DNA from: Clostridia bacterium
GTDB taxonomy: Bacteria > Bacillota > DAOUPZ01
DNA: 64,000 bases
Assembly: GCA_030625885.1 (NCBI GenBank)
Contig: DAOUPZ010000020.1
Span: forward strand, 3,728-67,727
Reading direction: 5' to 3'
Shown here: positions 4,901-61,351 of the stretch, piece by piece
Layout: every line of letters begins with the position of its first letter
Numbering within the stretch: position 1 is the stretch's first letter
Translations under genes and position numbers: made by a program
Notes under the pieces: model-generated
Databases searched by the model: none
What the model was told of the DNA's origin: nothing
Seen by the model: only the letters and a program-made list of their open reading frames with translations

Positions 4901-4912
4901 TGGTGGAGGTGA
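4901..4912. repeat. attL core (TGGTGGAGGTGA), direct repeat of 61279-61290
   Basis: Exact 12-bp copy of the complement of the ssrA 3' end (TCACCTCCACCA). Identity stops on both sides. Confidence 0.85.
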
Positions 4913-5027
4913 ACCATATCAGTTTATATCCACAATACCCATTAATAAATATCGTCATCAAAGTAAAAATTAAATTGTTTCTTCTATTATATATGCAATA
5001 AATATCCCGGGCAACCTACTCTCGGGA

Positions 5028-5240
5028 TTATTTCTCTGTATCTTCAAAAAAGTAATTAAAATCGCATTTATAAAAATCGCACAACCTTTTTAGAGTGTGT
5101 ATTTTGATTTCTGTTTTATCTTTTTCATAGCTGGATAAAGTAGCAGGATGAATTCCTCCAAAACTAGCTGATTCTTTTAATGACGATCCTGCTTTTTTTC
5201 TACACTCATACAGTTTCTCCCCTACAGATTTGATAGCCAT
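5028..5240 (-). CDS. XRE-family HTH protein (moron)
   Basis: 70-aa ORF with an HTH_3-like pattern 'LYECRKKAGSSLKESASFGGIHPATLSSYEKDK'. Has its own RBS AAAGGAG and a duplicated promoter module upstream. Confidence 0.7.
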   Translation of the reverse strand: MAIKSVGEKLYECRKKAGSSLKESASFGGIHPATLSSYEKDKTEIKIHTLKRLCDFYKCDFNYFFEDTEK

Positions 5241-5342
5241 TATACATCCATCTCCTTTGCAAAATCATTGATACTTCTACAATCAACTGTTTATATCCTA
5301 CCACTTATATTTTACCACTTATACATAAAAATGGAATAGGGA

Positions 5343-5375
5343 GATAAAAGAAAAACCCAGGAGTAATTTCCTAGG
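5343..5375 (-). terminator. Rho-independent terminator (part of the duplicated 72-bp module)
   Basis: Minus strand reads CCTAGGAAATTACTCCTGGG followed by TTTTTCTTTT. Confidence 0.65.
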
Positions 5376-5384
5376 CTTTATGTG

Positions 5385-5651
5385 CTATAGAACATATTTT
5401 ATATTGATAGTAATAGTTCCTTCTGATGTTACTGAAGAAACAATTACCGTTAGTGGATCTAATTCTCCAATAGACCCTTTAGCCGTTACAAAATATACAC
5501 CTGGTCTTTCATAAACATGAGTTACAACACTTCCAATAACAATAGTACCATCACCAAAATTCCATGTAAATGTTGTTCCTGTAACTGAAGGATAAAAAGT
5601 TATCAGTTCACCCACTTTAGGCTTAAGGGGTTCATAACGGAAATGAGGCAT
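5385..5651 (-). CDS. PKD-domain protein
   Basis: 'GELITFYPSVTGTTFTWNFGDGTIVIGSVVTHVYERPGVYFVTAKG' matches the PKD fold signature (WxFGDG..H.Y...G.Y). Start moved to the Met preceded by GGAGTGA. Confidence 0.65.
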   Translation of the reverse strand: MPHFRYEPLKPKVGELITFYPSVTGTTFTWNFGDGTIVIGSVVTHVYERPGVYFVTAKGSIGELDPLTVIVSSVTSEGTITINIKYVL

Positions 5652-5742
5652 TATTATCACTCCATTAATATGATATAGAATTATCTTATTCATCCTGGGA
5701 TTCTTCTTCTAGTAGTCGCGAATATTTTTATCGCATCACCTG

Positions 5743-6402
5743 TTAGAAAAATTTTGGTTTTTTATCAAAAAAACCATAAGATTTTTTGATAAATATCGGC
5801 TTAATTTCAACTTCTTTAGTTACGTTACTTTTCTTATCAGTAATAAGGATTTTTGTTATAGTGTTGGCTTTCTCAATAGGAAAATTGCTTTTTCTCATTT
5901 CAAATGAAATTACATTACTGTTGCTTTTGAAGTTCAAAAGACGATTATTTAAATGATGAATTCCTACTTCATCAACAACATCTATCTTGATATGGTTACA
6001 ACCATCAGTACCTTCTCCAATAAAACTGTCCGATACTAACTTGCCTTTTAATTTTACAGTCTGCAATTCATTGTTAAAATCATATGGCTTACTATAAAAA
6101 TGGCATATTTTAAAATAAGGCATTACCAAAGGTTCAGGCAAATATTCAATTATTTTATATCTTAATTTATCTTGTCCAAATCCAGGAAATTTTGCTGTAA
6201 AATTTTCAATGTTAATTTTTTCAATATTTATTGTGATGTCTCTTAAGATAACTTGTTTACCTATAACATGTTGCCTAATAGTAATATAGTGCTGCATATA
6301 AAAATATGCTGATATCGCAAGCCATATTATTAGTATAGTAATTATTCCTTTTAACCATTTTTTATTATTCATCTTCAACACCACCAAATATTTTGGATTC
6401 AA
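5743..6402 (-). CDS. Membrane-anchored hypothetical protein
   Basis: 219-aa ORF with one N-terminal TM helix (WLKGIITILIIWLAISAYFYM). Lies between the AbrB-like and PKD genes. No recognisable domain. Confidence 0.5.
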   Translation of the reverse strand: MNPKYLVVLKMNNKKWLKGIITILIIWLAISAYFYMQHYITIRQHVIGKQVILRDITINIEKINIENFTAKFPGFGQDKLRYKIIEYLPEPLVMPYFKICHFYSKPYDFNNELQTVKLKGKLVSDSFIGEGTDGCNHIKIDVVDEVGIHHLNNRLLNFKSNSNVISFEMRKSNFPIEKANTITKILITDKKSNVTKEVEIKPIFIKKSYGFFDKKPKFF

Positions 6403-6741: not shown

Positions 6742-6772
6742 GCAAAAGAAAAACCCAGGAATTACTCCTGGG
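6742..6772 (-). terminator. Rho-independent terminator overlapping the stop of the 632-aa gene
   Basis: Minus strand reads CCCAGGAGTAATTCCTGGG followed by TTTTTCTTTTGC. Confidence 0.7.
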
Positions 6773-8660
6773 AAATCATCATATTAAAGCCAAACTTTTT
6801 ATATCCTTTTCTGTAATCATTATGCTGATCTTCTTCATCCGGCTCCAAAAACTCCAAAATTACTAATACTCTTCCTTCACCATATTTAATAGAATACTCA
6901 CGCAAATTCCATTTCCTTTTGCTCTCATCGACTAGCTTCAAATCACACCAGTAATGTAATGGCATTCTTTCCTCAAAAGAAGTAATTCCTTCATTTAATA
7001 TTTTATGAACTCCAGTATAATCCGGATAATGCTCTCCATAATTTGGTAAGCATGAATAATTTAAAGGAAACGATTTTGAAAACCTTCGTAATGTACATAT
7101 ATCGTTTTCAAATCTAAACAAAACAGTAGGAATACTTTCAATTAATGCAACCATTCTTGATGCTAATGCTATAATTGAAACACAGTACTTATCTTTAAGT
7201 TCACTTATTCTATCCCAAGACCCTACTCCATATTTGCAATCATTAACAATATCTTTTGAAGGCATAAGTAAACTTGCAGCAAATTCATCTGCTTCTCTCT
7301 CTAATTTGTATGTTGAATTTTCCTCAATCCACTCTGATATTAAGCAAATATCAATATCATTCTTACCATAATGGTAGATGTAATGACCTACTTCATGAGC
7401 AATAGTAAATCTTCTTCTTTCATTACTTTGAATATCATTATTTATTATAATTAATGGAAATAAAAGTTCTTCTGTTTTCAATAAACAACCGTCAAACCCT
7501 TTATCACTAATTTCATCAATATAATTTAATGATAAACCAAATTTATTAGCAATTTTTTCAGGATTAATAGGTAATTCTTTTTCATTAGTGACTCGTCTTA
7601 CTGCATAAGTATAATCTTCAATACTAAAAGTATCTTTTATCTCTAAATCATCAATTAATAAAACATCAAAACTAATATCCTTATTACGTACTTCTTTATA
7701 CATTTCAACCAATTTATACTTTGTTGAATCACTAAGATGACTCACCTTACTCCTTGCTGCTAATTGGATTTCTTGTAGGTCTAGTTTTGAACTAGAAGCA
7801 ATGTTTCTAAGCCATACTTTTGAATCACTATCACTAGCTCTAACATAAATCGGTCTTAAAATATCTTGAGTGGCATAACCAAATTCTAGGCAAAAATCTC
7901 TATATAAAGCTGGACTATCTAAAACTAACACTATAAATTCACTAAATTCTTTAATACTTTTACTTTCTAATGCAATATTTTTTATTAAAGCCAACAAATT
8001 TTTCTTTTCATTTAAAGTGGTACTTTCACTGTAGTAAACTGCAAAAAATTCATCAGAAATTCTAGAACTCAAAACTTCTCGAGGCTTATTATTTAAGAAA
8101 TATTTAAATAAATTAAGTTTTTGAATATCGTTTGTAGATGCATATTCTTGCAAAAATTCTCTATATGGAATATTAATGTATTTTTTAAATTCATCATAAT
8201 ACTTTTTAAATTCTATATCCTCAGCCATATACTGCAAAAACTTTTTTTCTTTTTCTAAATTTCTGCCTGATATGATATATGAATAAACGTCTTCCTTTAA
8301 AAAAAAATTTCCATTTTCACGGCAAGAAAAAAGAATCCTCTCCAATATATCATCGTTAATATCAATTTCAAAATTTGATAAAAGAATAAAAGCACCTAGA
8401 GCTTTTATTCTTTCGTTATCTTGACTCATAGTTATAAGACTTTGTTTAACTTGCTCTAACCTTTCTGATCCAATTAATAATTTAGACTTTCGGAATCCTA
8501 GCACCCATGGCTCAACATTCTGATTCTTATATGTTTCAACTGCAATATATTCTAATCCATTGTACCAATCAGTATCATTTAATACTTCGCTTATCTGTTT
8601 GGCCAACATATCAGAACAATCTTTATCATATCTAGACATTTTATTTCGAAAGTCTTGCAT
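6762..8660 (-). CDS. Large protein with a C-terminal-half ImmA/IrrE (M78, DUF955) zinc-peptidase domain
   Basis: 'FTIAHEVGHYIYH...EREADEFAASLLMP' is the HExxH..E.EA..FA..lLmP signature. The ~430-aa N-terminal region has no domain I recognise. Start set at the ATG 5 nt after the upstream stop, with GAGGTGA as RBS. Confidence 0.7.
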   Translation of the reverse strand: MQDFRNKMSRYDKDCSDMLAKQISEVLNDTDWYNGLEYIAVETYKNQNVEPWVLGFRKSKLLIGSERLEQVKQSLITMSQDNERIKALGAFILLSNFEIDINDDILERILFSCRENGNFFLKEDVYSYIISGRNLEKEKKFLQYMAEDIEFKKYYDEFKKYINIPYREFLQEYASTNDIQKLNLFKYFLNNKPREVLSSRISDEFFAVYYSESTTLNEKKNLLALIKNIALESKSIKEFSEFIVLVLDSPALYRDFCLEFGYATQDILRPIYVRASDSDSKVWLRNIASSSKLDLQEIQLAARSKVSHLSDSTKYKLVEMYKEVRNKDISFDVLLIDDLEIKDTFSIEDYTYAVRRVTNEKELPINPEKIANKFGLSLNYIDEISDKGFDGCLLKTEELLFPLIIINNDIQSNERRRFTIAHEVGHYIYHYGKNDIDICLISEWIEENSTYKLEREADEFAASLLMPSKDIVNDCKYGVGSWDRISELKDKYCVSIIALASRMVALIESIPTVLFRFENDICTLRRFSKSFPLNYSCLPNYGEHYPDYTGVHKILNEGITSFEERMPLHYWCDLKLVDESKRKWNLREYSIKYGEGRVLVILEFLEPDEEDQHNDYRKGYKKFGFNMMISQE

Positions 8661-8665
8661 TATTA

Positions 8666-9250
8666 TCACCTCATAAAAGGAATCCACTCAGATTCAGACT
8701 CATTCCATCTTTCTATCCTTATTACTTCAGCTTCTGAAATATCAAAAGCAATTAAATTATACCTAGTTAATTCGCATTCAACTGAAGGTTGGCTCCTAAC
8801 TACTCCACCAGTCCTTCTAAACTTCCTAAAAACTTGGGGGCGTTTGATTCTTACTACAGCTCTATAAATGCGTTCATTAAAAGAAATACCATGTGCCCTA
8901 ACAATAGATATAGGATTTCGCGTATCATCAGGATAAAAAAGTGGGTTTGCAGTACCATATGCTCCATCACCATAATGAGGTTCCTCAGAAAACATACTTC
9001 TGTTAATACAATTTTCGCACATACAATACGTCCTAGATTTTATTACTTTTGTTGTAATTATCTTATTTAATATATTATCATCTGCCACAAAATAATGATA
9101 AAATTTGTTTATTTGTTCAATTCCAAAATTTTCAAAACATTCATGTTCTCCCCTTAATAAATCTTCGTCAGTAGCTTGTCCAATTGGAGAAGTCTCATAC
9201 GGTATACTTATGGGGTTTTCTCTACAATTGTCGCAAAACTTATCTGTCAT
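8666..9250 (-). CDS. Cys-rich hypothetical protein (194 aa)
   Basis: ORF with RBS AAGGGGG. Contains CDNC and CMCENC motifs. Translationally coupled to the M78-domain gene. Confidence 0.55.
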   Translation of the reverse strand: MTDKFCDNCRENPISIPYETSPIGQATDEDLLRGEHECFENFGIEQINKFYHYFVADDNILNKIITTKVIKSRTYCMCENCINRSMFSEEPHYGDGAYGTANPLFYPDDTRNPISIVRAHGISFNERIYRAVVRIKRPQVFRKFRRTGGVVRSQPSVECELTRYNLIAFDISEAEVIRIERWNESESEWIPFMR

Positions 9251-9778: not shown

Positions 9779-10393
9779 CTATTTCACCCCTTTCAGAATA
9801 CGTAAAACATTCAGCGCAACAGCTAACACAAACCATTTAGTAGCTGGTTCATCCGGGTTATGATCATCAGTAATTATCCCAGCTTTCTTAGCATTTTTAA
9901 TAATGTTTAATTTCCATTGTTCGGGCATCTTTTTCTCTTCCTCCTTTTTGGCACTCCTGTAATGCTGAATAAATGCATCAGGAGTCTTCCAATTCCTAAT
10001 CAATGTTTTAACGCTCTTTCCTACAACATACTTAGGATCCTCAAAATGAGGATAGTCAACAAAGCTTTTAAAATCACCACCCCAGAAAAGGCCAATGCTT
10101 TTCCCTAAAGCACCTACTTTTTTGTAAAGGTCAATGCGGTTCCAGTTTACCTTACCATTTACTTTAACAGCAATATCAAAAGCTACTCCCCAACAGTGAG
10201 GGGAATATGGGTATCTCGCATTTGTAACCTTCCTACCAGGCTTGGTTCGTCCTTTGGCATATATATCTTCTTGCTCCTTTTTAGTTCGGAGTGTTTGGGT
10301 AATAATGATTTCTATCCCATTCTCCTTACAAAGTTCAATTAACTTACGGCAACTATCTGCTATTTCTGGATGCAACAGACTAATATCACGCAT
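9779..10393 (-). CDS. Endolysin, M15 (VanY-like) peptidase
   Basis: 'SPHCWGVAFD' and 'DYPHFE' metal-ligand motifs of the M15 peptidoglycan peptidase family. Located in the lysis cassette. Confidence 0.8.
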   Translation of the reverse strand: MRDISLLHPEIADSCRKLIELCKENGIEIIITQTLRTKKEQEDIYAKGRTKPGRKVTNARYPYSPHCWGVAFDIAVKVNGKVNWNRIDLYKKVGALGKSIGLFWGGDFKSFVDYPHFEDPKYVVGKSVKTLIRNWKTPDAFIQHYRSAKKEEEKKMPEQWKLNIIKNAKKAGIITDDHNPDEPATKWFVLAVALNVLRILKGVK

Positions 10394-36455: not shown

Positions 36456-37694
36456 CTAGCCACTAACGTCCTTATAACAATACTTCTTGCCATCTCTTAA
36501 GAGAAATACTTCTTTATCACTAGAAGTTTTCTCAATATACCTTTTTACAATCACATCTACATACCTTTCATCCAGCTCCATCATCCTGCAAACCCTATTA
36601 GTTTCCTCACAAGCAATCAGTGTGCTACCGCTTCCTCCAAACAAATCAAGTACCACATCATCCATTTTACTACTGTTCTTTATCGGATAAGCAACAAGTG
36701 GTACTGGTTTCATAGTAGGGTGAATATCATTTCTAAACGGCTTATCAAACTGCCATAGTGTTGTTTGTTTTCGATCCGCATTCCAATAATGCGCTGCTGT
36801 TGGTTTCCAACCATAAAGTACAGGTTCATGCTGCCAATGATAATCTTGCCTTCCCATTACCATTGATTGCTTGGCCCATATGCAGCATTGAGCCAGCTTA
36901 AATCCTGCTTCAGTAAAAGCCTTCCTAAAATTTAAGCCCTCACTATCTGCATGAAAGACATAAATTGCTGCACCATCTGCAGCTGCTTCATACATTCTCG
37001 TGAAGGCTTCAAGTAAGAATTTATAGAAATTTGCATTGTCCATCTTATCATTTTCAATCTTTAAGGCATCCTTAGTTTTACCTGTATAGTCTACGTTGTA
37101 TGGCGGATCCGTTACAATCAGATTCACTTTCTTTCCATCCATAAGCATCAAAGTATTATCTTTATTCGTACTATCTCCACACATAAGCCTGTGCCTGCCA
37201 AGCAGCCAGATATCACCTTTCTGTGTAATGGGCTCTGTTATTTCCTCAAGCGCTTCATCAATATCAAAATCATCATCTTCTACTTCCTGAGGATGATACT
37301 CTTCCATCATATCTTCAAACTCTTTCATATCAAACCCAGTAAGCTCTAAATCATAATCACTCAATTTCAGTTCTTCCAGTTCATTTATGAGCTGTTCATA
37401 ATCCCACTCAGCTATCTCTCCTGTTTTATTATCTGCTATCCGATACGCTTTTGCTTTCTCTGGTGTAAGGTCGCTTGCAACAATCACGGGAATTTGGGTA
37501 AGACCTAGCTTCTTCGCTGCTTTGTATCGTGTATGGCCAACAATGATCAAATTGTCTTTATCTACAATTACCGGGTTTTTAAAGCCAAACTCTTTAATGC
37601 TCTCAGCCACTTTATCTACTGCTTTATCATTCTTTCTCGGATTATTCTCATATGGTTTTATTTGAGTTATATCCACAAGCTGTATCTGTTGCAT
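36456..37694 (-). CDS. ParB-like N-terminal domain fused to a DNA methyltransferase (DPPY motif)
   Basis: 'IKPYENNPRKN...GHTRYKAAKKLG' is a ParB/Srx-like domain. 'LIVTDPPYNVDY' is motif IV of N6A/N4C methyltransferases. No cognate nuclease is adjacent. Confidence 0.8.
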   Translation of the reverse strand: MQQIQLVDITQIKPYENNPRKNDKAVDKVAESIKEFGFKNPVIVDKDNLIIVGHTRYKAAKKLGLTQIPVIVASDLTPEKAKAYRIADNKTGEIAEWDYEQLINELEELKLSDYDLELTGFDMKEFEDMMEEYHPQEVEDDDFDIDEALEEITEPITQKGDIWLLGRHRLMCGDSTNKDNTLMLMDGKKVNLIVTDPPYNVDYTGKTKDALKIENDKMDNANFYKFLLEAFTRMYEAAADGAAIYVFHADSEGLNFRKAFTEAGFKLAQCCIWAKQSMVMGRQDYHWQHEPVLYGWKPTAAHYWNADRKQTTLWQFDKPFRNDIHPTMKPVPLVAYPIKNSSKMDDVVLDLFGGSGSTLIACEETNRVCRMMELDERYVDVIVKRYIEKTSSDKEVFLLRDGKKYCYKDVSG

Positions 37695-49909: not shown

Positions 49910-49925
49910 GTTACTAGAATACTAT

Positions 49926-49958
49926 AAATACCCGCTCACCCGGGTATTTATTTTTTTG
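49926..49958 (+). terminator. Rho-independent terminator after the lipoprotein gene
   Basis: AAATACCCG-CTCACC-CGGGTATTT followed by ATTTTTTT. Confidence 0.75.
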
Positions 49959-49980: not shown

Positions 49981-50009
49981 TTGAAATATGGCTATATGTG
50001 GTATATAAT
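49981..50009 (+). promoter_or_regulatory. Consensus sigma-A-type promoter upstream of the SIR2-like gene
   Basis: TTGAAA, exactly 17 nt, then TATAAT. Implies a ~250-nt leader before the ATG at 50264. Confidence 0.6.
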
Positions 50010-50263
50010 ACCAATGGGATATGAGACAATTCAAGAATTTGCAGCACGAATGAAACTACCACTGGAGATTGTTGAGATTTGAGCTAGGTATAATTACTAG
50101 CCTTGTTTTATTGAGGTTCAGGGGAAATATTTTACATGTTTGGGATATGTAACAAATTATTTGGAGTTAATTATAGAGTTGAAAACTAAAGTGACACTTC
50201 TCATAACTGAAATATTATTTTTCTCAAAGTAATTTATGTATTAGTTAAAGTTGAGGTGATTAT

Positions 50264-51643
50264 ATGAAAGAGGTAACAGAATTAACAAGAGAGAATGTTT
50301 TAGAAATCCTTTTCAATTCATTTAACTACGGTAATTTAGGCTTGTTTATTGGTGCGGGCTTTTCAAAAGCTGTTATAAATGATAGTTTTAACACCGCTTT
50401 ATCCTGGGGAGAATTAATTGAAACAGCATGCAAAGAAATAGGGGTTTGCGAACCACAAGATGAAATAGTAATAGGTATGTCATTCCCAGAAATATCTACT
50501 AAAATTTGTGATACAATCTCTAATGAAAAACATGTCCCGTATGAAGATGCAAAAACGATGTTCAAAAAAACATTATGTAATTTAACTAATTGGCTTCCGG
50601 ACGAAGAAAACACAAGTATTTTTAGCGAATTATTAAAACAAATAAATCCTTCTTGGATTATTACAACTAATTATGATTTAGTAATAGAAAGACTTTTAAC
50701 AGGAAAATGTGTGACATTAGGTCCTAATGATTATTTAACAACTCCTAGAGGTGTAATCCCTATTTATCATTTACATGGTATTCGACTTGATCCAGACTCA
50801 ATTATCATTAATCAGGAAGATTATGTGCAGTTATTTAGACCGAATGAATATAGACAAATTAAACTAGCATTGACAATTAAAGAGTCCACTACTTTAGTTC
50901 TTGGATACGGTTTAGGAGATGTAAATGTACTTTCTGCCGTAGATTGGTCAAAAAACATATTTAAAGAATCTAACGAATATCCACACGAAATTATTCAGGC
51001 TATAAGGACTGAAAATCCTTCAAACGAACCATATAAAGATAAAAACGGAAACATAATAATTGAAATAAAAGAGATAGAAGATTTCTTGCAAGAGTTTGTA
51101 GAGTTTCTGGATATTCGTAATAAAGAATACGATAAACGATTAGAAAGACTCTATGAAATAATTGGGGATTTAACGGATAATAGAGCAGAACAAGTTAATA
51201 TTTTTATTAACAATCAAGATAAAAGATTAAGTTTATTAGCCTTATTATCAGAATTTGAGCTACATATGGTTTCTCCTTATATTGATTTTATATCAGCGTG
51301 TATTGACAAAACATGGGAAGATTCATCTAAGGATGGTAATTTTAATGCTTACGACCAGTATTTAAAAATATTACTTGATATAGTTATTAATTATAAATAC
51401 AATAAAATGCCACCAGCATTATTTGAATTTGTTGCTTATTCACTTGACAAGGTTTTTAGATATATTGGTGACAGCGAAAAGCATTTATATTATGGCGATA
51501 GTTGGGATGCTACAAGAACATGGCATAATAACAAAAAATATATTCCAGATAAAATGATTAAAGAGCTATACCATTACTCTAAACAAAACTATATGCTACA
51601 ACTTCATAAGAAAGTCAAAAAATTAATTGAGTGTCCTTCATAA
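50264..51643 (+). CDS. SIR2-like (SIR2_2-type) NADase-family protein with helical C-terminal domain
   Basis: 'LFIGAGFS', 'IITTNYDLVIE', 'IYHLHG', 'INQEDY' and 'LVLGYGLGD' are the ordered motifs of the defence-associated SIR2 family. RBS GAGGTGA. Confidence 0.75.
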   Translation: MKEVTELTRENVLEILFNSFNYGNLGLFIGAGFSKAVINDSFNTALSWGELIETACKEIGVCEPQDEIVIGMSFPEISTKICDTISNEKHVPYEDAKTMFKKTLCNLTNWLPDEENTSIFSELLKQINPSWIITTNYDLVIERLLTGKCVTLGPNDYLTTPRGVIPIYHLHGIRLDPDSIIINQEDYVQLFRPNEYRQIKLALTIKESTTLVLGYGLGDVNVLSAVDWSKNIFKESNEYPHEIIQAIRTENPSNEPYKDKNGNIIIEIKEIEDFLQEFVEFLDIRNKEYDKRLERLYEIIGDLTDNRAEQVNIFINNQDKRLSLLALLSEFELHMVSPYIDFISACIDKTWEDSSKDGNFNAYDQYLKILLDIVINYKYNKMPPALFEFVAYSLDKVFRYIGDSEKHLYYGDSWDATRTWHNNKKYIPDKMIKELYHYSKQNYMLQLHKKVKKLIECPS

Positions 51644-51783
51644 AATTACTATGAATAGTTAGTAACAATTTGATATGTATGATATAGTAAAATATTGTTA
51701 TTACACATCGTCTGAAATTTAAAATTTCTCCTTCAATTATTTAATGACCTCTCCCCTTCTATCACAACCTAATAACAACTAAA

Positions 51784-51809
51784 GATACATCCTATGGGTG
51801 TATCTTTTT
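51784..51809 (+). terminator. Terminator within cassette-boundary element copy A
   Basis: GATACATCC-TAT-GGGTGTATC followed by TTTTT. Confidence 0.65.
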
Positions 51810-51992
51810 AACTTTTATGGAATTTTAAGGAGGTAATTATCTATTTTTGTCAAATATATATTTGTAACAATAAAAATATAAGTTATCTTTTCAAGAAGAA
51901 TATTGAATGCTTTAAGTATATATAAATTTCACTTATATAGTTGATTAATTATTTTTTATTTGATAGACTTTACTTTTTTTGGGGGTATGTAT

Positions 51993-53480
51993 ATGAATAA
52001 ACTAAGGAAAAGCCCATTTAAGCTGGACAAAATAGAAAAAAACCCAACTGGGTTTGGACTAAGAATAAAACAAATAACTGAATGCTTTCAAAATTTATAT
52101 AATAATCGAAGCTTAATTATATCTGGTCCAAGAGGTATTGGAAAATCTTCTTTAGGAGTACAATTACAAAATGTTTTTGCAGGTGATAATACATTACTTA
52201 AAAGGTGTTATATAAACGAAGAATTCCCTAACTCAGTATGCATCTATAAAGCCTGTTCCAAACAAGATACACTTGATCAAATAACTTTAGACATTTTATC
52301 AGACTTAGAAAATGAAGTAAAAAACCTTCAATTAAATTTTAATTGTAAATTAAATGCTTGTTTAGAATTTAATTTTGGCCCAATTAAAGCACAAATAAAC
52401 GCTGAAAAAGACAAAAAGGAATATTTACCTTCTACAATGGCAAATATTTTAGCAAATAGCTTAATAAAAACTATTTGTACATTTAACAAAGATAATCTTA
52501 ATTTAGGAATAAATATAATGCTAGACGAAATGGATCAACTTAATAGAGATATTAATTTTGGACACTTCATTAAAGTTGTAAATGAAACACTTAACAATAA
52601 AGGTGTGGAAAATATCACCTTTATTGTTGCTGGTCAAACTGGTATATTTAATAGATTTAATAATGAAGATAGATCATTTGAAAGAATTGTTAAACATATA
52701 CCTATTTCACCTCTAGATGAAGAGGCATGTGAATATATATTACTCTATGCACAAGATAAAGCTAAACCACCCTTTACAATACAACAAAATGCTAAAAAAA
52801 TGATTCTTTCATTAGCTTCAGGATATCCCTATGTAATACATTTAATTGGAGATGCTGCTTTTTTTAAAATGAAGAATGAAAAAACAATGACATCCATTGA
52901 TGTACTTAGTGGAATTGAAAATATTTTACAAAGCAATAAAAAAGAAAAATATATTGAAAAATTAAAACATATTAATCCTTTTGAAAGAAAAGTTATTATT
53001 ACTTTATCCCAGTACCACAGTAATGAAATTCCAGTTAAAATACCCATTAACTGGATACTTGATAGACTACTTAATAAAAATAATTCAATTGACAAAATTC
53101 AATCCTGTTTAGAATGTTTAGTTGAAAAGGGATATCTTAAAGTAAAAAGTACCCCACCAAATAATAATAAACTATATTATTTTGCCGAAGAATTATTTAG
53201 AGTTTTTGTTTCTCTTAAAAGAATTGAAAAATATGAAGTAGATGTTAATAGAAGATACAAAGACAACGAAAACTATTATCAAGCAAACATTGATCGCCCA
53301 TACCAATTGGACGAAAATTCATATAATGATCAATACTTTTTTGAGCATGAAATTGATAATGAACTAACTTATGAAATTAATAGTACAAGAATTGACGAAG
53401 TAATGAATGAGCTTGAAGAAGCAGAATACGATCCGGATTTTGAAGATACCGAACTAGACATTCTATATTATGATGAATAA
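51993..53480 (+). CDS. ORC/Cdc6-like P-loop ATPase with C-terminal winged-helix-like region and acidic tail
   Basis: Walker A 'ISGPRGIGKSSL' and Walker B 'NIMLDEMDQL'. C-terminal 'LECLVEKGYLKV'. Start chosen 7 nt after GGGGG. Confidence 0.65.
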   Translation: MNKLRKSPFKLDKIEKNPTGFGLRIKQITECFQNLYNNRSLIISGPRGIGKSSLGVQLQNVFAGDNTLLKRCYINEEFPNSVCIYKACSKQDTLDQITLDILSDLENEVKNLQLNFNCKLNACLEFNFGPIKAQINAEKDKKEYLPSTMANILANSLIKTICTFNKDNLNLGINIMLDEMDQLNRDINFGHFIKVVNETLNNKGVENITFIVAGQTGIFNRFNNEDRSFERIVKHIPISPLDEEACEYILLYAQDKAKPPFTIQQNAKKMILSLASGYPYVIHLIGDAAFFKMKNEKTMTSIDVLSGIENILQSNKKEKYIEKLKHINPFERKVIITLSQYHSNEIPVKIPINWILDRLLNKNNSIDKIQSCLECLVEKGYLKVKSTPPNNNKLYYFAEELFRVFVSLKRIEKYEVDVNRRYKDNENYYQANIDRPYQLDENSYNDQYFFEHEIDNELTYEINSTRIDEVMNELEEAEYDPDFEDTELDILYYDE

Positions 53481-55359: not shown

Positions 55360-55405
55360 CTGCAATCCTGAATACACTTTGTACAAAGTGTATTCAGGAT
55401 TGCAG
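55360..55405. repeat. Perfect 46-bp palindrome at the istB truncation point
   Basis: CTGCAATCCTGAATACACTTTGT / ACAAAGTGTATTCAGGATTGCAG, verified base by base. Confidence 0.9.
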
Positions 55406-55573
55406 ATGAAAGAAATAGTTACTATCTTCTGCACTCAACTAAAGATAGAAGATTGGCACATAAAACTAGGTGATGGTGTTCTGGCTGATTCAATTCTAGA
55501 TAGAATAGTACATCGTTCACTGCGTATTAATGCAAGTAGCATAAATATGCGTGAAATTGAATCTGACTTATAA
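55406..55573 (+). pseudogene. IstB (IS21 helper ATPase) C-terminal fragment
   Basis: 'KEIVTIFCTQLKIEDWHIKLGDGVLADSILDRIVHRSLRINASSINMRE' matches the conserved IstB C-terminus (..W......lAdAilDRlvH......G.S.R). No Walker motifs are present. Confidence 0.65.
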
Positions 55574-55858: not shown

Positions 55859-57877
55859 CTATAAAAAATAACTTTTGAAATACTCTCTTGTTTTTATATC
55901 TTTAAACCAAACATAACATCCTTTTCTACCTCTTGTTAAGAGTATACGATAAATATTACTAAACAACATTAAGATATCTTTGTTATTACGTTTAGGGCTA
56001 TAATTTTGAACAAGTGACACTAGTTCGTCCGCTTCTTTTGTTACAAGCCATTGTTTACGTTGCTGGTCATATCTCAAACGCTCCTGTTCTATTCCATATA
56101 ATTTAGCAATAAACCCCTTATCCTGACTATTATTAATATCAAAGCACCATTTTTGCCCATCCCAATAAAAATCATCACCAAAAATAACACCTACATACTC
56201 AAAATCAAAGCCTTGTACTGTATATACACAACCCACTTCATCGAATAAAGGATCCATATTACTATACCATTCATAAATTACATTTCGTTCAGGAAAAACC
56301 CTAGGATTTTTATTCCATGGCTTTTTCCAAATTCCTAAAGGCGTCTCGATAACAATGTCATCAATCAGTTTTTTGCTCTTATCTGGATCTGTCCATGGCC
56401 AACAAAACCCTGCAACAATTCTAGTTCTTATTCCTGTATGTTTTCTTTTATCTTGTAGTAATTTCTCCATCTCAAAGGGAGTATCACAAACCTTAATGTC
56501 ATATTTATTCTTAGCTTCCTGGCTTGCGAAAGAATCTCCCCCCTCAAAAAGCTTATATAATTTTTCCAAATAATCTTGATTGTAACCACAACGATGTTGG
56601 GTTTTTAACTTTTTCATAACTTTCTTTTCAACAGTAATTTTTCCTTTACTGTTAATAATATGTATACACTTATTAATATTATCTAAAGTCCCTTTTTCCG
56701 AAGGACCAATAATTTGATTTTCATCTAAAAGAAAAATCGTAACCTTTGAACGCTTAATTAATTCTATAATATTATTCTCATTTGTGATCCTATGGGCTTC
56801 ATCCACAATGGAAAGACAAGTAACAGTATTATCGTTTTTCAAGTGTGTTACTACATTATATGTATTTGGAAAAAGATTCTTAGAATTTATTGAATTGCTT
56901 TTACCATTATCATCACCCAAATAACCGCCTATGACATGGCAAATTGCCCTTGAAGGTGATGAAATAGATACAGATTCCAAAGACCAATTATATTTTTTTG
57001 CCTGTGTATGATACCATGCAAACAATTCTAATCCTACAGCAGTTTTCCCAGAACCTGGTGTACCTTGAATAATAATTACGGAATGTTTTTGAGAATAGTT
57101 CTTAAAATTAATTACCTCTCTTATTATTTTACAAGCTTCCATATATACATTTTGTTGTTCCTCGACCATTGTCAAAAGATGTTCACCATTTTTATATTTA
57201 GCATAATTTTCAAACAAATCGTTATCAGGTATATATTCACCATCTGTAATTAATTTATAATCACTTTTATTATTCTCACTTTCAAATAGTGAGCATAAAT
57301 AATCTCTAAATTCTTCCTTATTACGAGCACAAAACAAAATATTATCCCTCTTATATTTACCAACTTCATATTTACCAGAAATTAATATGTGTTCGTCAAG
57401 TAAATTATGCAAAAACGCACAAGCCTCTATGGTTATGTTCTCTTTACGTACAATTGAATGGTTCATTTCTAAGTATTTTTTATATGTAAGTACTTGTGCC
57501 AAAGGATGTTCCCTTTGTTCTTCGAACTGCTCTTGAACCATAATAACTGTGCTAATCTCTTTACCTTCAGTTGGTTTAACCGTGGTCCATTGTTTTAACT
57601 CTACTAATAAAGCAACAGGTAATTTTGTTCTTTTACTTATTCCAACTAAAATTGCGTCCACTCTTTTGTTATTAAAGGGTAAGCTATATTCTAATATTAT
57701 ATCAAGATTACTTAAGCCAGCCTCTTTTAAGATATTAATAAGCTCCGGTAATGAATTTTCCCATGACAATCGTTCATTTTCTTTAACACTATACCCTGAA
57801 GCATTTTCTAACATACTTGCAATTTCCTCTCCACTTTTATCTAAAAGTGGAGAGACTGAACCAGCATACAGATACAT
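55859..57877 (-). CDS. PD-(D/E)xK-like nuclease N-domain fused to P-loop helicase-like ATPase (DUF2075 / Schlafen-type, Nhi-like architecture)
   Basis: N-terminal 'RVDAILVG...LLVELKQW' (D..E.K), Walker A 'IIQGTPGSGKTAVG' and Walker B 'LSIVDEAHRI'. RBS GAGGTGA lies 7 nt upstream, just after the HNH gene stop. Confidence 0.7.
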   Translation of the reverse strand: MYLYAGSVSPLLDKSGEEIASMLENASGYSVKENERLSWENSLPELINILKEAGLSNLDIILEYSLPFNNKRVDAILVGISKRTKLPVALLVELKQWTTVKPTEGKEISTVIMVQEQFEEQREHPLAQVLTYKKYLEMNHSIVRKENITIEACAFLHNLLDEHILISGKYEVGKYKRDNILFCARNKEEFRDYLCSLFESENNKSDYKLITDGEYIPDNDLFENYAKYKNGEHLLTMVEEQQNVYMEACKIIREVINFKNYSQKHSVIIIQGTPGSGKTAVGLELFAWYHTQAKKYNWSLESVSISSPSRAICHVIGGYLGDDNGKSNSINSKNLFPNTYNVVTHLKNDNTVTCLSIVDEAHRITNENNIIELIKRSKVTIFLLDENQIIGPSEKGTLDNINKCIHIINSKGKITVEKKVMKKLKTQHRCGYNQDYLEKLYKLFEGGDSFASQEAKNKYDIKVCDTPFEMEKLLQDKRKHTGIRTRIVAGFCWPWTDPDKSKKLIDDIVIETPLGIWKKPWNKNPRVFPERNVIYEWYSNMDPLFDEVGCVYTVQGFDFEYVGVIFGDDFYWDGQKWCFDINNSQDKGFIAKLYGIEQERLRYDQQRKQWLVTKEADELVSLVQNYSPKRNNKDILMLFSNIYRILLTRGRKGCYVWFKDIKTREYFKSYFL

Positions 57878-57896
57878 TGTGTTTTCACCTCTAGAT

Positions 57897-58871
57897 CTAC
57901 AAATGATAATTTATAGTTATTGATTCTACATAACCATTTGAATAGCATACTTCCTTCTTTTTTCGATCAAATTTCCCCTTTGCTTTATGAATTAGCCGAT
58001 GATGGTTAGGACAGAGTATCATAATATTTTCAGGGGAATTATTTTGAGTCAAGGCAAACTCCTGAATATGATGTGCTTCTACAACAGATACTCCATAATC
58101 ATCCAAGCCACTATGACCACAAATTTGGCAGCAATGGTTATACTTTTCCTTCAATTCATCAATTATCTTTTTATTATATTTCCGAACCTTTTTCAGTCCT
58201 TCTTTAACTTCGACCGAGGCTTCTTGATCCAAAGATTGAAGATACGAACTAAATTGCTCATCTGTCATATCTAATACACTATTTTCTAACTCTCTCTCTC
58301 CTTTGGTTTCCAGTTCACCTTTAAATCTAATCAAGGTATCTTTCAGTTTCGAGTTCGTAAGAAAGCTAATTGCATCATTTATACTACCATAGTTATTAAT
58401 GATTTCATCAAGAGTATTTGAATTTATTCTATTAAATCCTTGAGGAACAAAATTTTGCTTATATCCAAAAAAACTTGCGAATTCAGTACGATCTAAATTG
58501 ATTGACTGTAAATCTGTGATGAAATATATATATTCCCATGTCTTCCCATCATTATCTTTATCCCAGACAATTTCAGCTAATTTCCTATTATGGGTTTTAG
58601 TTAGAATAGTACCGTAGTAAAGAAACGTACCTTTAGAATAAACAAGAACTTTATCCCCCTTTTCCATCTTTGCCCATCTTGGTATATTCTGATCCCCTGG
58701 TACAGCACCCCACATATTTACTTCTTCAGCCTGGCCAGCTCTTTTCAATTCTTGTAGTACATCTTCATCCAACAAGTCACTATAACGACCAATTGGGGAT
58801 TTATTTTCTATTGTGTCTTCCAAATGTTTTTGAGCTATTTTATTACTGGCTGTAAAATAAAATAAATTCAC
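57897..58871 (-). CDS. PUA-like (EVE/ASCH-like) reader domain fused to HNH endonuclease
   Basis: C-terminal 'CCQICGH...VEAHHI...MILCPNHHRLIH' (HNH). N-terminal 'WGAVPG..RWAKMEKGDKVLVYSKGTFLYYGTI' is a beta-barrel-like pattern. GTG start. Confidence 0.65.
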   Translation of the reverse strand: MNLFYFTASNKIAQKHLEDTIENKSPIGRYSDLLDEDVLQELKRAGQAEEVNMWGAVPGDQNIPRWAKMEKGDKVLVYSKGTFLYYGTILTKTHNRKLAEIVWDKDNDGKTWEYIYFITDLQSINLDRTEFASFFGYKQNFVPQGFNRINSNTLDEIINNYGSINDAISFLTNSKLKDTLIRFKGELETKGERELENSVLDMTDEQFSSYLQSLDQEASVEVKEGLKKVRKYNKKIIDELKEKYNHCCQICGHSGLDDYGVSVVEAHHIQEFALTQNNSPENIMILCPNHHRLIHKAKGKFDRKKKEVCYSNGYVESITINYHL

Positions 58872-58905
58872 CTTAAATTCACATCCTTCTTATCTAAATT
58901 ATTTA

Positions 58906-59238
58906 TTACTCTAATTCGTTATATTTTTTATTTGAACCAAATGCTTTTTCAACAGGATATTTGTTCTCGTTTTTAAGCAACTTTTCTTCAATTGTCTGTT
59001 TCAAATTAATGTCTAATTCATGTGATAATAATAAAAGATAAATCGCAATATCAGCAATTTCTTCTTTCATATTTTCTAGTTTCATACTTACCGCTTCTTC
59101 ATTGCTTTTCCATTGAAAACATTCTAATAACTCACTCGATTCAATAGACAATGAAATTGCTAAATCTTTTGGATTATGATATTGCTTCCAATTACGCTCA
59201 TCTCTAAATTGAATTATTTTTTCCATTAAATCTTTCAT
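58906..59238 (-). CDS. MazG-like nucleoside triphosphate pyrophosphohydrolase (small all-alpha NTP-PPase)
   Basis: 110 aa with 'ESSELLECFQW' and 'EEIADIAIYLLLL', the paired EExxE/D metal-binding helices of MazG/dCTPase-like proteins. Confidence 0.7.
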   Translation of the reverse strand: MKDLMEKIIQFRDERNWKQYHNPKDLAISLSIESSELLECFQWKSNEEAVSMKLENMKEEIADIAIYLLLLSHELDINLKQTIEEKLLKNENKYPVEKAFGSNKKYNELE

Positions 59239-59794: not shown

Positions 59795-61351
59795 ATGATT
59801 GCTTTGAAAGCAGCAGCATATGTAAGATATTCAAGTGATAACCAAAGAGAAGAATCGATTGAAGCACAGTCGCGCGCAATCAAGGAATATGCAGAGCGTA
59901 ACAATATGACAATCGTAAGAATATACGCTGATGAAGCAAAGTCAGCAACTACTGATGATCGGCCACAATTTCTTCAAATGATTAAGGATAGTGGACTTGG
60001 TATATTTGACGTTATCATTGTCCACAAATTGGACAGGTTTGCTAGAAATCGATATGACTCTGCCTTTTATAAGCGCGAACTGCGTAAAAATGGCATAAAG
60101 CTTATGTCCGTACTGGAAAACCTGGATGATAGCCCAGAAAGCATTATCCTGGAATCTGTACTCGAGGGAATGGCTGAATACTATTCTAAAAACCTTGCCC
60201 GGGAAGTTATGAAAGGGATGAAAGAAACTGCTCTTCAATGCAAGCATAATGGAGGCATACCGGCCCTAGGATACGATGTAAAAGAGGACAAAACTTATAC
60301 CATTAATGAAGAGGAAGCACGCATTGTACAGCTTATTTTCGAACTGTATGCACAAGGAAAAAGCTACAACTATATCATTAATACACTAAATGAAAAAGGA
60401 TATAAAACCAAACGCGCTAATCCATTCGGCAAAAATAGCATTCACGATATTTTAGTTAATGAAAAATACGTTGGAACTTATGTTTTTAATCGCACGATTT
60501 CTAAAGTAAATGGGAAAAGGAATCACCATCATTCAAAAGATGAATCAGAAATAATTAGAGTTGAAAATGGTATTCCTGCGATAGTTAGCAAAGAAGTTTT
60601 CGAAGCAGTAAAAATGCGAATGAATAAAAACAAGCGGGGCACCGGAGAACGTAAAGCTAAAGAAGTATATCTGCTCTCTGGGAAAATATTCTGTGGCAAG
60701 TGTGAAGGTGCATTGGTAGGTAATAGACGCTATGCAGGCAGAAATAAAACATTATACCTTACGTATGAATGCTCTACTCGTAAGCGAAATAAAACTTGCG
60801 ATGCAAAAGGAATAAATAAAGAGTATATTGAAAATGATGTTATTGAGGAACTAAAAAACAGATTATTCTCACCTGAAGCTATTGAAACCATTACAGATAA
60901 ATTATATAAATTTACTCAAAACCAAAATAAAGAAATAACCGGAAGCATCAAACAATTTGAAAAGGAACTGAATTCTACACAAAAAGAAATAGATAACTTG
61001 ATCAATGCTATTGCTGCAGGAATGTTTCATCCATCTATGAAAGATAAAATGGATCAGCTTGAATCCAAGAAAACAGAATTAACGATCATGCTCAATGAAG
61101 CAAAAATGCAAAAGCAGATTAACTCACCTACTAAAGAAATGATCACAGGATATTTTATGAAAGATATTAATATAAAAGAAAAAAGCCTGGAAGATCAAAA
61201 ACAGATCATCCAAGCTTATGTAACGCGTGTAATAGTATATGAAAACAACATCGATATTGAGTTGATTGTGGATATTGATGGTGGAGGTGAGGGGAATCGA
61301 ACCCCTGTCCGAAAGCGTTTTCATTCAAGCTTCTACGAGTGTAGCCTTTGA
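59795..61351 (+). CDS. Large serine recombinase (prophage integrase)
   Basis: 'AAYVRYSSDNQ' catalytic-Ser region, a recombinase domain, a zinc ribbon 'CGKCEG..YECSTRKRNKTC' and a coiled coil. A TTG at 59804 with better RBS spacing is an alternative start. The last 20 codons lie beyond attR in antisense ssrA. Confidence 0.85.
   Translation: MIALKAAAYVRYSSDNQREESIEAQSRAIKEYAERNNMTIVRIYADEAKSATTDDRPQFLQMIKDSGLGIFDVIIVHKLDRFARNRYDSAFYKRELRKNGIKLMSVLENLDDSPESIILESVLEGMAEYYSKNLAREVMKGMKETALQCKHNGGIPALGYDVKEDKTYTINEEEARIVQLIFELYAQGKSYNYIINTLNEKGYKTKRANPFGKNSIHDILVNEKYVGTYVFNRTISKVNGKRNHHHSKDESEIIRVENGIPAIVSKEVFEAVKMRMNKNKRGTGERKAKEVYLLSGKIFCGKCEGALVGNRRYAGRNKTLYLTYECSTRKRNKTCDAKGINKEYIENDVIEELKNRLFSPEAIETITDKLYKFTQNQNKEITGSIKQFEKELNSTQKEIDNLINAIAAGMFHPSMKDKMDQLESKKTELTIMLNEAKMQKQINSPTKEMITGYFMKDINIKEKSLEDQKQIIQAYVTRVIVYENNIDIELIVDIDGGGEGNRTPVRKRFHSSFYECSL
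61279..61290. repeat. attR core (TGGTGGAGGTGA)
   Basis: Exact repeat of 4901-4912. Equals the complement of the tmRNA 3' end. Confidence 0.85.

Follow-up and report, generated by a model that had tools for sequence, protein, structure and literature searches.

A stand-alone SIR2 protein with a family-specific helical C-terminal domain: a candidate single-protein NAD-depleting defence enzyme carried as prophage cargo

A 64,000-nucleotide (nt) stretch of a Clostridia bacterium contig (DAOUPZ010000020.1; the whole stretch is hereafter the window, and positions refer to it) carries an open reading frame (ORF) at 50264..51643 (+) for a 459-amino-acid (aa) SIR2-like protein. We propose, with a probability that we put at roughly 0.6, that this protein is a single-protein, nicotinamide adenine dinucleotide (NAD)-depleting abortive-infection defence enzyme, borne as prophage cargo. 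The protein joins an N-terminal SIR2_2 domain, with intact and invariant catalytic residues, to an all-alpha C-terminal domain (hereafter the C-domain); its gene is partner-free and monocistronic in organisation, and is located in a mobile element, in a defence-island setting (Table 1). From the domain, its context, and the distribution of the family we infer NADase activity, a trigger, autoinhibition, and protection. SIR2-based NAD+ depletion is a major theme in bacterial immunity, with echoes in eukaryotic immunity.

An N-Terminal SIR2 Domain of the SIR2_2 Type

The ORF, which starts at the first ATG following a stop, encodes the motifs GAGFS (residues 30-34), TTNYD (134-138), HLHG (169-172), and GYGLGD (214-219), in the order reported by an initial annotation made from the DNA sequence alone. 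SIR2_2 (PF13289) is the sole Pfam domain found (residues 132-245, E 7.7e-17, 62.2 bits vs. a cut-off of 24.5). Residues G30, G32, F33, T134-D138, H169, H171, G172, G214, G218, and D219 are invariant in an alignment of 35 diverse homologues. Profile alignment to PDB sequences places N136/H171 opposite N133/H171 of DSR2, and H171 opposite H146 of KomC; substitutions at these DSR2 and KomC histidines give the PDB entries DSR2(H171A) and KomC(H146N) their titles. The best profile-to-PDB match is SeThsA (7uxt, E 1e-7). For the full-length AlphaFold2 (AF2) model (predicted local distance difference test, pLDDT, 81.5), the nearest folds are the defence NADases DSR2, ThsA, and KomC, by the SIR2 domain only (query-normalised TM-score ~0.45). 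There is no match to the Pfam SIR2 family (PF02146) and no NCBIfam family for the protein, and FAM118B is a weak sequence match. No CxxC pairs occur in the 459-aa sequence; thus, the zinc module of deacylase-type sirtuins is missing. SIR2_2-type proteins have been placed in an immunity clade (10.1101/2024.09.18.613514).

A FRPNEYRQxKLAxTIxEST segment (residues ~190-240, window positions 50831-50983) is near-invariant across phyla. Residues ~190-240 also have the lowest confidence in the AF2 model (pLDDT 53-75), and might form a mobile active-site or interface loop.

A Helical C-Domain Nearly Exclusive to the Family

When residues 266-459 were modelled alone (AF2), the prediction comprised nine helices and zero strands (pLDDT 87.4, predicted TM-score 0.80), including a long helix that spans residues 271-304, and a conserved Gly/Trp-rich loop (G411, W413, A416, and W420). 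Foldseek searches with the C-domain found nothing in the PDB at E <= 0.001 (top match a designed helical repeat, E 0.065) and nothing significant in BFVD (top E 0.29), and the C-domain profile matched no PDB sequence below E 0.28. No Pfam or NCBIfam family covers the C-domain, and none of the signal-binding folds SLOG, SAVED, CARF, and Macro was found by Pfam or Foldseek. Because structure and profile searches were empty, the C-domain is neither a SLOG nor a recognisable sensor. The initial annotation had read the last ~180 aa as all-helical and unlike SLOG, and had proposed structure prediction followed by Foldseek as the check; the nine-helix model, the lack of a STALD/SLOG match in Pfam, and a Foldseek search that returned neither SLOG nor any known sensor bear this out. 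Within the SIR2 family, mean pairwise identity is 41% for the C-domain vs. 60% for the SIR2 domain; thus, the C-domain evolves faster.

A search of 1.84 billion representative proteins with the C-domain profile gave only 235 matches, nearly all of which were fragments or ~450-aa proteins matched at positions ~260-450. P0342 (599 aa) is the exception; there, the C-domain (hhalign 98%) follows AbiJ_NTD3 and protein kinase domains. This kinase family comprises at least nine clusters (P0342, P0357-P0365; 591-602 aa), and its alignment matches the C-domain profile over 175 columns (hhalign 98.8%, E 6e-17); one member (locus L084, 8001-9809) adjoins a KAP NTPase and a type I restriction-modification (R-M) system. 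The C-domain is therefore nearly exclusive to the SIR2 family, yet is reused by an AbiJ_NTD3-kinase (Stk2-like) effector family. The C-terminus of canonical Stk2 was rejected as a C-domain homologue (probability 0.3%).

A divergent relative with the same two domains is found in Escherichia coli IncY P1-like phage-plasmids, which encode a 435-aa SIR2 protein (WP_044169699, WP_112038434) between mat and a DarB-type N-6 DNA methylase gene (4962-6269 of locus L082, E. coli pSBF45b; also in L081). In P1, res/mod occupies this interval. The protein is 23% identical to the window protein over 87-90%, and its C-terminal half is homologous to the window C-domain (hhalign 88%, E 2.8e-6), the G-x-S-W-x-A-x3-W loop included.

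It is conceivable, although we consider it doubtful, that this ~190-aa helical domain represents a new module for phage sensing, portable and able to drive two unrelated suicide effectors, a SIR2 NADase and an AbiJ_NTD3-Ser/Thr kinase. If true, single-protein immune sensors would gain a new class, defined by one fold for trigger recognition; the attachment of the C-domain to a kinase effector gives a modularity hypothesis that can be tested.

Distribution and Neighbourhoods of the Family

A homology search retrieved 654 proteins (90% clustering); the C-domain is present in 235 representative clusters. The best 120 of the 654 homologues are all ~430-500 aa, mostly at 95-100% query coverage, which indicates that the two-domain architecture is conserved. 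The family is present in Bacillus, Clostridium, Listeria, many Gram-negative phyla, and mobile elements; it is carried by six viral contigs in IMG/VR, and relatives occur in 148 plasmid records, of which 120 are from E. coli. Among INPHARED phages there was one weak partial match only. PADLOC gave partial N-terminal matches only (PDC-S25, LmuA, ThsA) for the SIR2 protein, and its current models miss the family as a system.

We compared 80 related loci from GTDB species genomes (Bacillota, Pseudomonadota, Bacteroidota, Acidobacteriota, Campylobacterota, Planctomycetota, Spirochaetota, Myxococcota, and others), of which 78 were used for conserved-neighbour counts and 62 for a survey of genes within two positions on either side. 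The latter survey identified Stk2 (9e-213), ThsA (9e-200), and type I and type IV restriction enzymes, as well as McrBC, Mokosh MkoA, Dazbog DzbA, MADS genes, a pair of pAgo (prokaryotic Argonaute) and SIR2 genes, and a UG29 reverse transcriptase (DRT). The closest named homologue (Paenibacillus campinasensis, 69% identical) is encoded between a SIR2-HerA pair and smpB-rnr (L085, 3878-8377). Because the window gene also lies beside the transfer-messenger RNA (tmRNA) gene (ssrA), smpB, and rnr (see below), the ssrA/smpB locus is a hotspot for the SIR2 gene across genera.

A Stand-Alone Gene

No neighbour family (ORFs >= 70 aa, within four genes on either side, clustered) recurs in more than four of the 78 loci, and neither does any family of small partner ORFs (20-90 aa, <= 600 nt away). 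Neighbours shared between loci reflect lineage synteny only (e.g., ribonucleotide reductase in Campylobacter). In the window, the gene is laid out as terminator, near-consensus promoter, strong ribosome-binding site (RBS), ORF, and terminator, and it looks monocistronic because terminator-like hairpins stand on both flanks. These findings agree with the initial description of a stand-alone gene, as does the lack of any TIR, HerA, pAgo, or DSR-size extension among the neighbouring ORFs (Pfam, PADLOC). The same annotation had raised the downstream ATPase gene (51960-53480) as a possible partner. This candidate was rejected, since a terminator intervenes and the ATPase was found by tblastn in none of the 80 related loci.

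The ATPase itself (+ strand, 506 aa) has weak nSTAND3/AAA_22/AAA_16 matches and belongs to its own ~480-aa family, in which some members end in an EAD7 effector-associated domain or begin with a cold-shock domain. Not linked to the SIR2 gene, the ATPase may constitute a single-gene conflict system in its own right.

Table 1. Features of the SIR2 gene and its flanks (window coordinates).
Feature	Coordinates	Strand	Remarks
Intrinsic-terminator-like hairpin, 11-bp stem and T-run	49924..49951	+	Closes the upstream lipoprotein gene
Promoter-like site TTGAAA-17-TATAAT	49981..50009	+	11/12; top match within 48.9-55.8 kb
Putative 5' leader	50016..50263	+	~247 nt if the 49981 promoter is used; without significant structure, repeat, or conservation
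Alternative promoter-like site GTGACA-16-TATTAT	50191..50218	+	10/12; 45 nt from the ATG
Shine-Dalgarno GAGGTGA	50253..50259	+	Ends 4 nt before the ATG; strong RBS; read from sequence
N-terminal SIR2_2 (SIRim-type) domain, residues 1-265	50264..51058	+	GAGFS as the NAD-binding Rossmann loop (GxGxS); catalytic N136/H171; GYGLGD
C-terminal all-alpha domain, residues 266-459 and stop	51059..51643	+	Nine helices; conserved G-x-S-W-x-A-x3-W loop
Intrinsic-terminator-like hairpin, 12-bp stem	51781..51807	+	Separates the SIR2 gene from the ATPase gene at 51960

Prophage Cargo at the tmRNA Gene

The window includes a myovirus-like prophage, with matches to sheath, tape measure, portal, terminase, protease, and RecT. 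The gene order is prophage, XRE repressor/ImmA pair, lipoprotein, SIR2 gene, and AAA_22/nSTAND-like ATPase, followed by two genes without a significant family match (one a putative membrane protein by composition, the other with a sub-threshold Phage_int_SAM_5 match only), and then an IstB fragment. The 3' end of a large serine recombinase gene (59795-61351) overlaps the 3' end of the tmRNA gene, with smpB and rnr next. The SIR2 gene is thus cargo, with the prophage repressor/ImmA module on one side and the serine recombinase at the tmRNA on the other. The G+C content is ~42% in the phage core but ~28% over 48-59 kb, a drop that would be expected of exchangeable cargo.

A 12-nt copy of the tmRNA 3' end (TGGTGGAGGTGA) occurs at 4901-4912 and 61279-61290, the former just outside the host genes ecsAB. 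The copy at 4901 suggests an element of ~56 kb, and the two repeats are probably the attL/attR pair that bounds it; a 12-mer alone is near chance level, and the exact position is suggestive.

Several other genes of the region were noted. The IstB_IS21 helper ATPase is a C-terminal fragment (55379-55573, +), an insertion-sequence relic within the cargo region. Beyond it is a minus-strand trio (55859-59238) of MazG-like (58906-59238), HNH (57897-58871), and SLFN/DUF2075 helicase (55859-57877) genes, the last with PADLOC PDC-S41 and Nhi-like matches; in Gracilibacillus (L007), a pair of SLFN and MazG-like genes also occurs, ~5 kb away from the SIR2 homologue. A 641-aa protein with an IrrE/Peptidase_M78 domain (6762-8687, -), encoded beyond an M15 endolysin-like gene (9779-10393) in the left arm of the element, may be further cargo. 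A ParB-like domain fused to a DNA methyltransferase (36456-37694, -) adjoins the prophage terminase genes. The host flank encodes an AbiEii toxin (664-1608) and an AbiEi/DUF6088-like upstream gene (1589-2293), both on the minus strand.

Proposed Mechanism and Points Against It

In the proposed mechanism, the SIRim-type SIR2 domain would be an NAD+ hydrolase that is inactive in uninfected cells, and the family-specific helical C-domain would serve as a sensing or regulatory module, which probably acts by recognition of a protein or complex made by the phage, or by control of oligomerisation. Upon infection, the C-domain would release or assemble the SIR2 domain; the activated enzyme would deplete NAD+, such that the infecting phage could not complete its cycle, and the infected cell would be killed or arrested.

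Several observations weigh against this proposal. The surroundings of the active site are uncertain, given the poor modelling of residues ~190-240 despite their near-invariance. Nothing about the C-domain points to a ligand, and a role in oligomerisation only cannot be separated from sensing. Many homologues adjoin plain housekeeping genes, and the statement that the neighbours of relatives are often defence genes is a qualitative judgement, made without a per-gene background rate. The kinase fusion family is small and confined to metagenomic contigs, and the sequence of the SIR2 gene is present only in DNA runs of a cold-seep metagenome. In the literature outside subscription-only papers, no characterisation was found of the family, of PDC-S25, of the P1-like protein and its accessions, or of SIR2 in DefensePredictor.

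Alternative Explanations

On present evidence, four alternatives are less likely than NAD-depleting abortive infection. ThsA senses gcADPR and KomC responds to dITP; these signal-activated proteins are the nearest solved relatives, and the Gly/Trp-rich loop of the C-domain could form a pocket. The protein might accordingly be the receiver-effector of a split system, in which the C-domain binds a diffusible small molecule (e.g., a nucleotide-derived messenger) produced by an unlinked gene. We regard this as unlikely, given that there are no conserved partners within four genes on either side in the 78 loci from many phyla and that the SLOG, SAVED, CARF, and Macro folds are absent; the patchy, horizontally moving distribution of the family also argues for a self-sufficient unit. 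A different chemistry, whereby the SIR2 domain would ADP-ribosylate a phage or host protein or nucleic acid, or make a signal, with defence by target modification, has some precedent, in that SIR2-fold enzymes include ADP-ribosyltransferases. The C-domain is also coupled to a protein kinase, itself a modifying enzyme, and human FAM118 SIR2-like proteins, of which FAM118B is the weak match mentioned above, are reported to perform weak NAD processing rather than depletion (PMC12700824; 10.1101/2024.09.18.613514). However, all the characterised bacterial relatives identified by fold or profile are bulk NADases, and we give the transferase explanation little weight, although nothing in the sequence itself distinguishes the two chemistries. 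The NCBI name of the protein, "SIR2 family NAD-dependent protein deacylase," and the location of some homologues among metabolic genes (e.g., adjoining ribonucleotide reductase in Campylobacter) would fit a housekeeping or regulatory sirtuin-like deacylase unrelated to phage defence. This is very improbable: the protein is a member of SIR2_2 and not of the deacylase SIR2 family, it lacks the zinc module, and its relatives are patchy across phyla, borne by prophages and plasmids, and frequently encoded beside defence systems, whereas database names of this kind are generic pipeline labels.

The fourth alternative concerns the control of a toxic enzyme by its leader, as a regulatory RNA (a riboswitch, an antitoxin-like repeat RNA, or an attenuator). 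The initial annotation had described a perfect TTGAAA-17-TATAAT promoter and a leader of ~250 nt with a near-repeat and a GCTAG...CTAGC hairpin. The promoter-like site is present at 49981-50009 and its -10 element is perfect, but the -35 element is TTGAAA and not TTGACA; an 11/12 match arises in 2.7% of shuffles of the 354-nt intergenic stretch, and in 55% of shuffles anywhere in the 6.9-kb region. The leader has the described length only if that site is used, and would be only ~40 nt from the second promoter-like site (50191-50218), which is 45 nt from the ATG. The intergenic gap is unusually long (354 nt vs. a family median of 94 nt), the near-repeat is real (50015-50029 vs. 50141-50155, 13/15 identical), and TGGGATATG has two copies in the 64 kb, both inside the leader. 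However, 24% of dinucleotide-shuffled leaders contain an exact 9-mer repeat and 6.6% contain a 13/15 window, which is chance level; the hairpin exists but is 5 bp only, and the leader as a whole shows no folding advantage over its shuffles (z = 0.05). An Rfam search of the leader gave zero family matches, and the upstream gaps of the closest relatives (50-152 nt) include none that can be aligned to it. Meaning in the repeat and hairpin is therefore unsupported, and a regulatory leader RNA seems quite improbable. The leader also contains a 22-codon ORF (MGYETIQEFAARMKLPLEIVEI; 50014-50082, +) that begins close to where transcription is predicted to start and lacks a Shine-Dalgarno sequence; this ORF may be the remnant of a small DNA-binding gene, in which case the "leader" would be decayed coding DNA.

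Further SIR2 fusions are what specialists would expect, and this family is compact (~455 aa), partner-free, and widespread. Its breadth and compactness, the kinase link, and a C-domain without a detectable relative in Pfam, the PDB, or BFVD make it a good experimental target, for which the E. coli P1-like relative and the Bacillus homologues would make experiments straightforward.

Comparison With Known SIR2 Systems

To our knowledge, in every characterised SIR2 system the enzyme is accompanied by a known sensor (SLOG, pAgo, HerA, STAND, or DSR solenoid). The initial annotation stated that the size class and domain partner of the window protein fit no known SIR2 system, and this held when the defining features of the named systems were tested: the protein is outside DSR1/2, Thoeris, SIR2-HerA, SPARSA, Avs5, Lamassu-SIR2, Kongming, and PDC-S25. 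In place of the HerA/DUF87 protein of SIR2-HerA (Gao_Her_SIR/Nezha), the window has an AAA_22/AAA_16/nSTAND-like ATPase, beyond a terminator. No window gene matches Aga_SIR2/APAZ or pAgo, unlike SPARSA, and the 459-aa protein has no NTPase domain, unlike Avs5/SIR2-STAND. For Lamassu (LmuA-SIR2) and Kongming (KomC), the match is confined to the SIR2 domain, and there is no conserved LmuB SMC or KomA/KomB partner. Canonical sirtuin deacylases (CobB/Sir2) are defined by a four-Cys zinc module and PF02146, both absent here.

Other proteins share more of the architecture. PDC-S25, a single-gene SIR2 candidate, is the top PADLOC match (E 1.2e-18), but the match is limited to profile positions 27-236 of 517, corresponding to the SIR2 domain; the two have unrelated C-terminal halves, and no full-length match to the 517- or 528-position profiles was obtained. 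ThsA of Thoeris is close in size (~470 aa), likewise begins with a SIR2 NADase, and gives the best profile-to-PDB match, but its C-terminal domain is a SLOG/STALD that binds gcADPR, and it depends on the TIR protein ThsB; the window protein has an all-alpha C-domain, there is no match to PF18185 (STALD/SLOG), and no TIR-domain ThsB gene was found in the window neighbourhood, nor any conserved neighbour in the 78 loci. The AbiJ_NTD3 and Ser/Thr kinase (P0342) family shares the C-terminal ~175 residues, the single-gene organisation, and a defence-island context, but has a protein kinase effector instead of SIR2; canonical Stk2 (500 aa) is without the C-domain. The P1-like protein has the same two-domain architecture and is likewise stand-alone and mobile-element-borne, but is a very divergent gene of a Gram-negative plasmid-prophage.

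By analogy, the protein would act most like DSR2 of Bacillus subtilis, as a single gene that combines SIR2 with a helical sensor. The two differ in size and sensor: the DSR1/DSR2 class comprises proteins of ~1000-1300 aa with a large helical MID/C-terminal domain (CTD) sensor (in DSR2, ~1000 aa, a MID domain and a large alpha-solenoid CTD), compared with 459 aa and a 190-aa helical domain here. The PADLOC Dsr1/Dsr2 models do not match at E <= 0.01, and the C-domain has no sequence or Foldseek similarity to DSR2, the resemblance ending with the SIR2 domain. Nevertheless, DSR2 is the top fold match, is likewise single-gene, and has an N-terminal SIR2 NADase with the same Asn/His pair, followed by a helical repeat-like C-terminal region that serves for sensing; the tail tube of the phage is bound by DSR2 (PMC10981675, PMC11850899).

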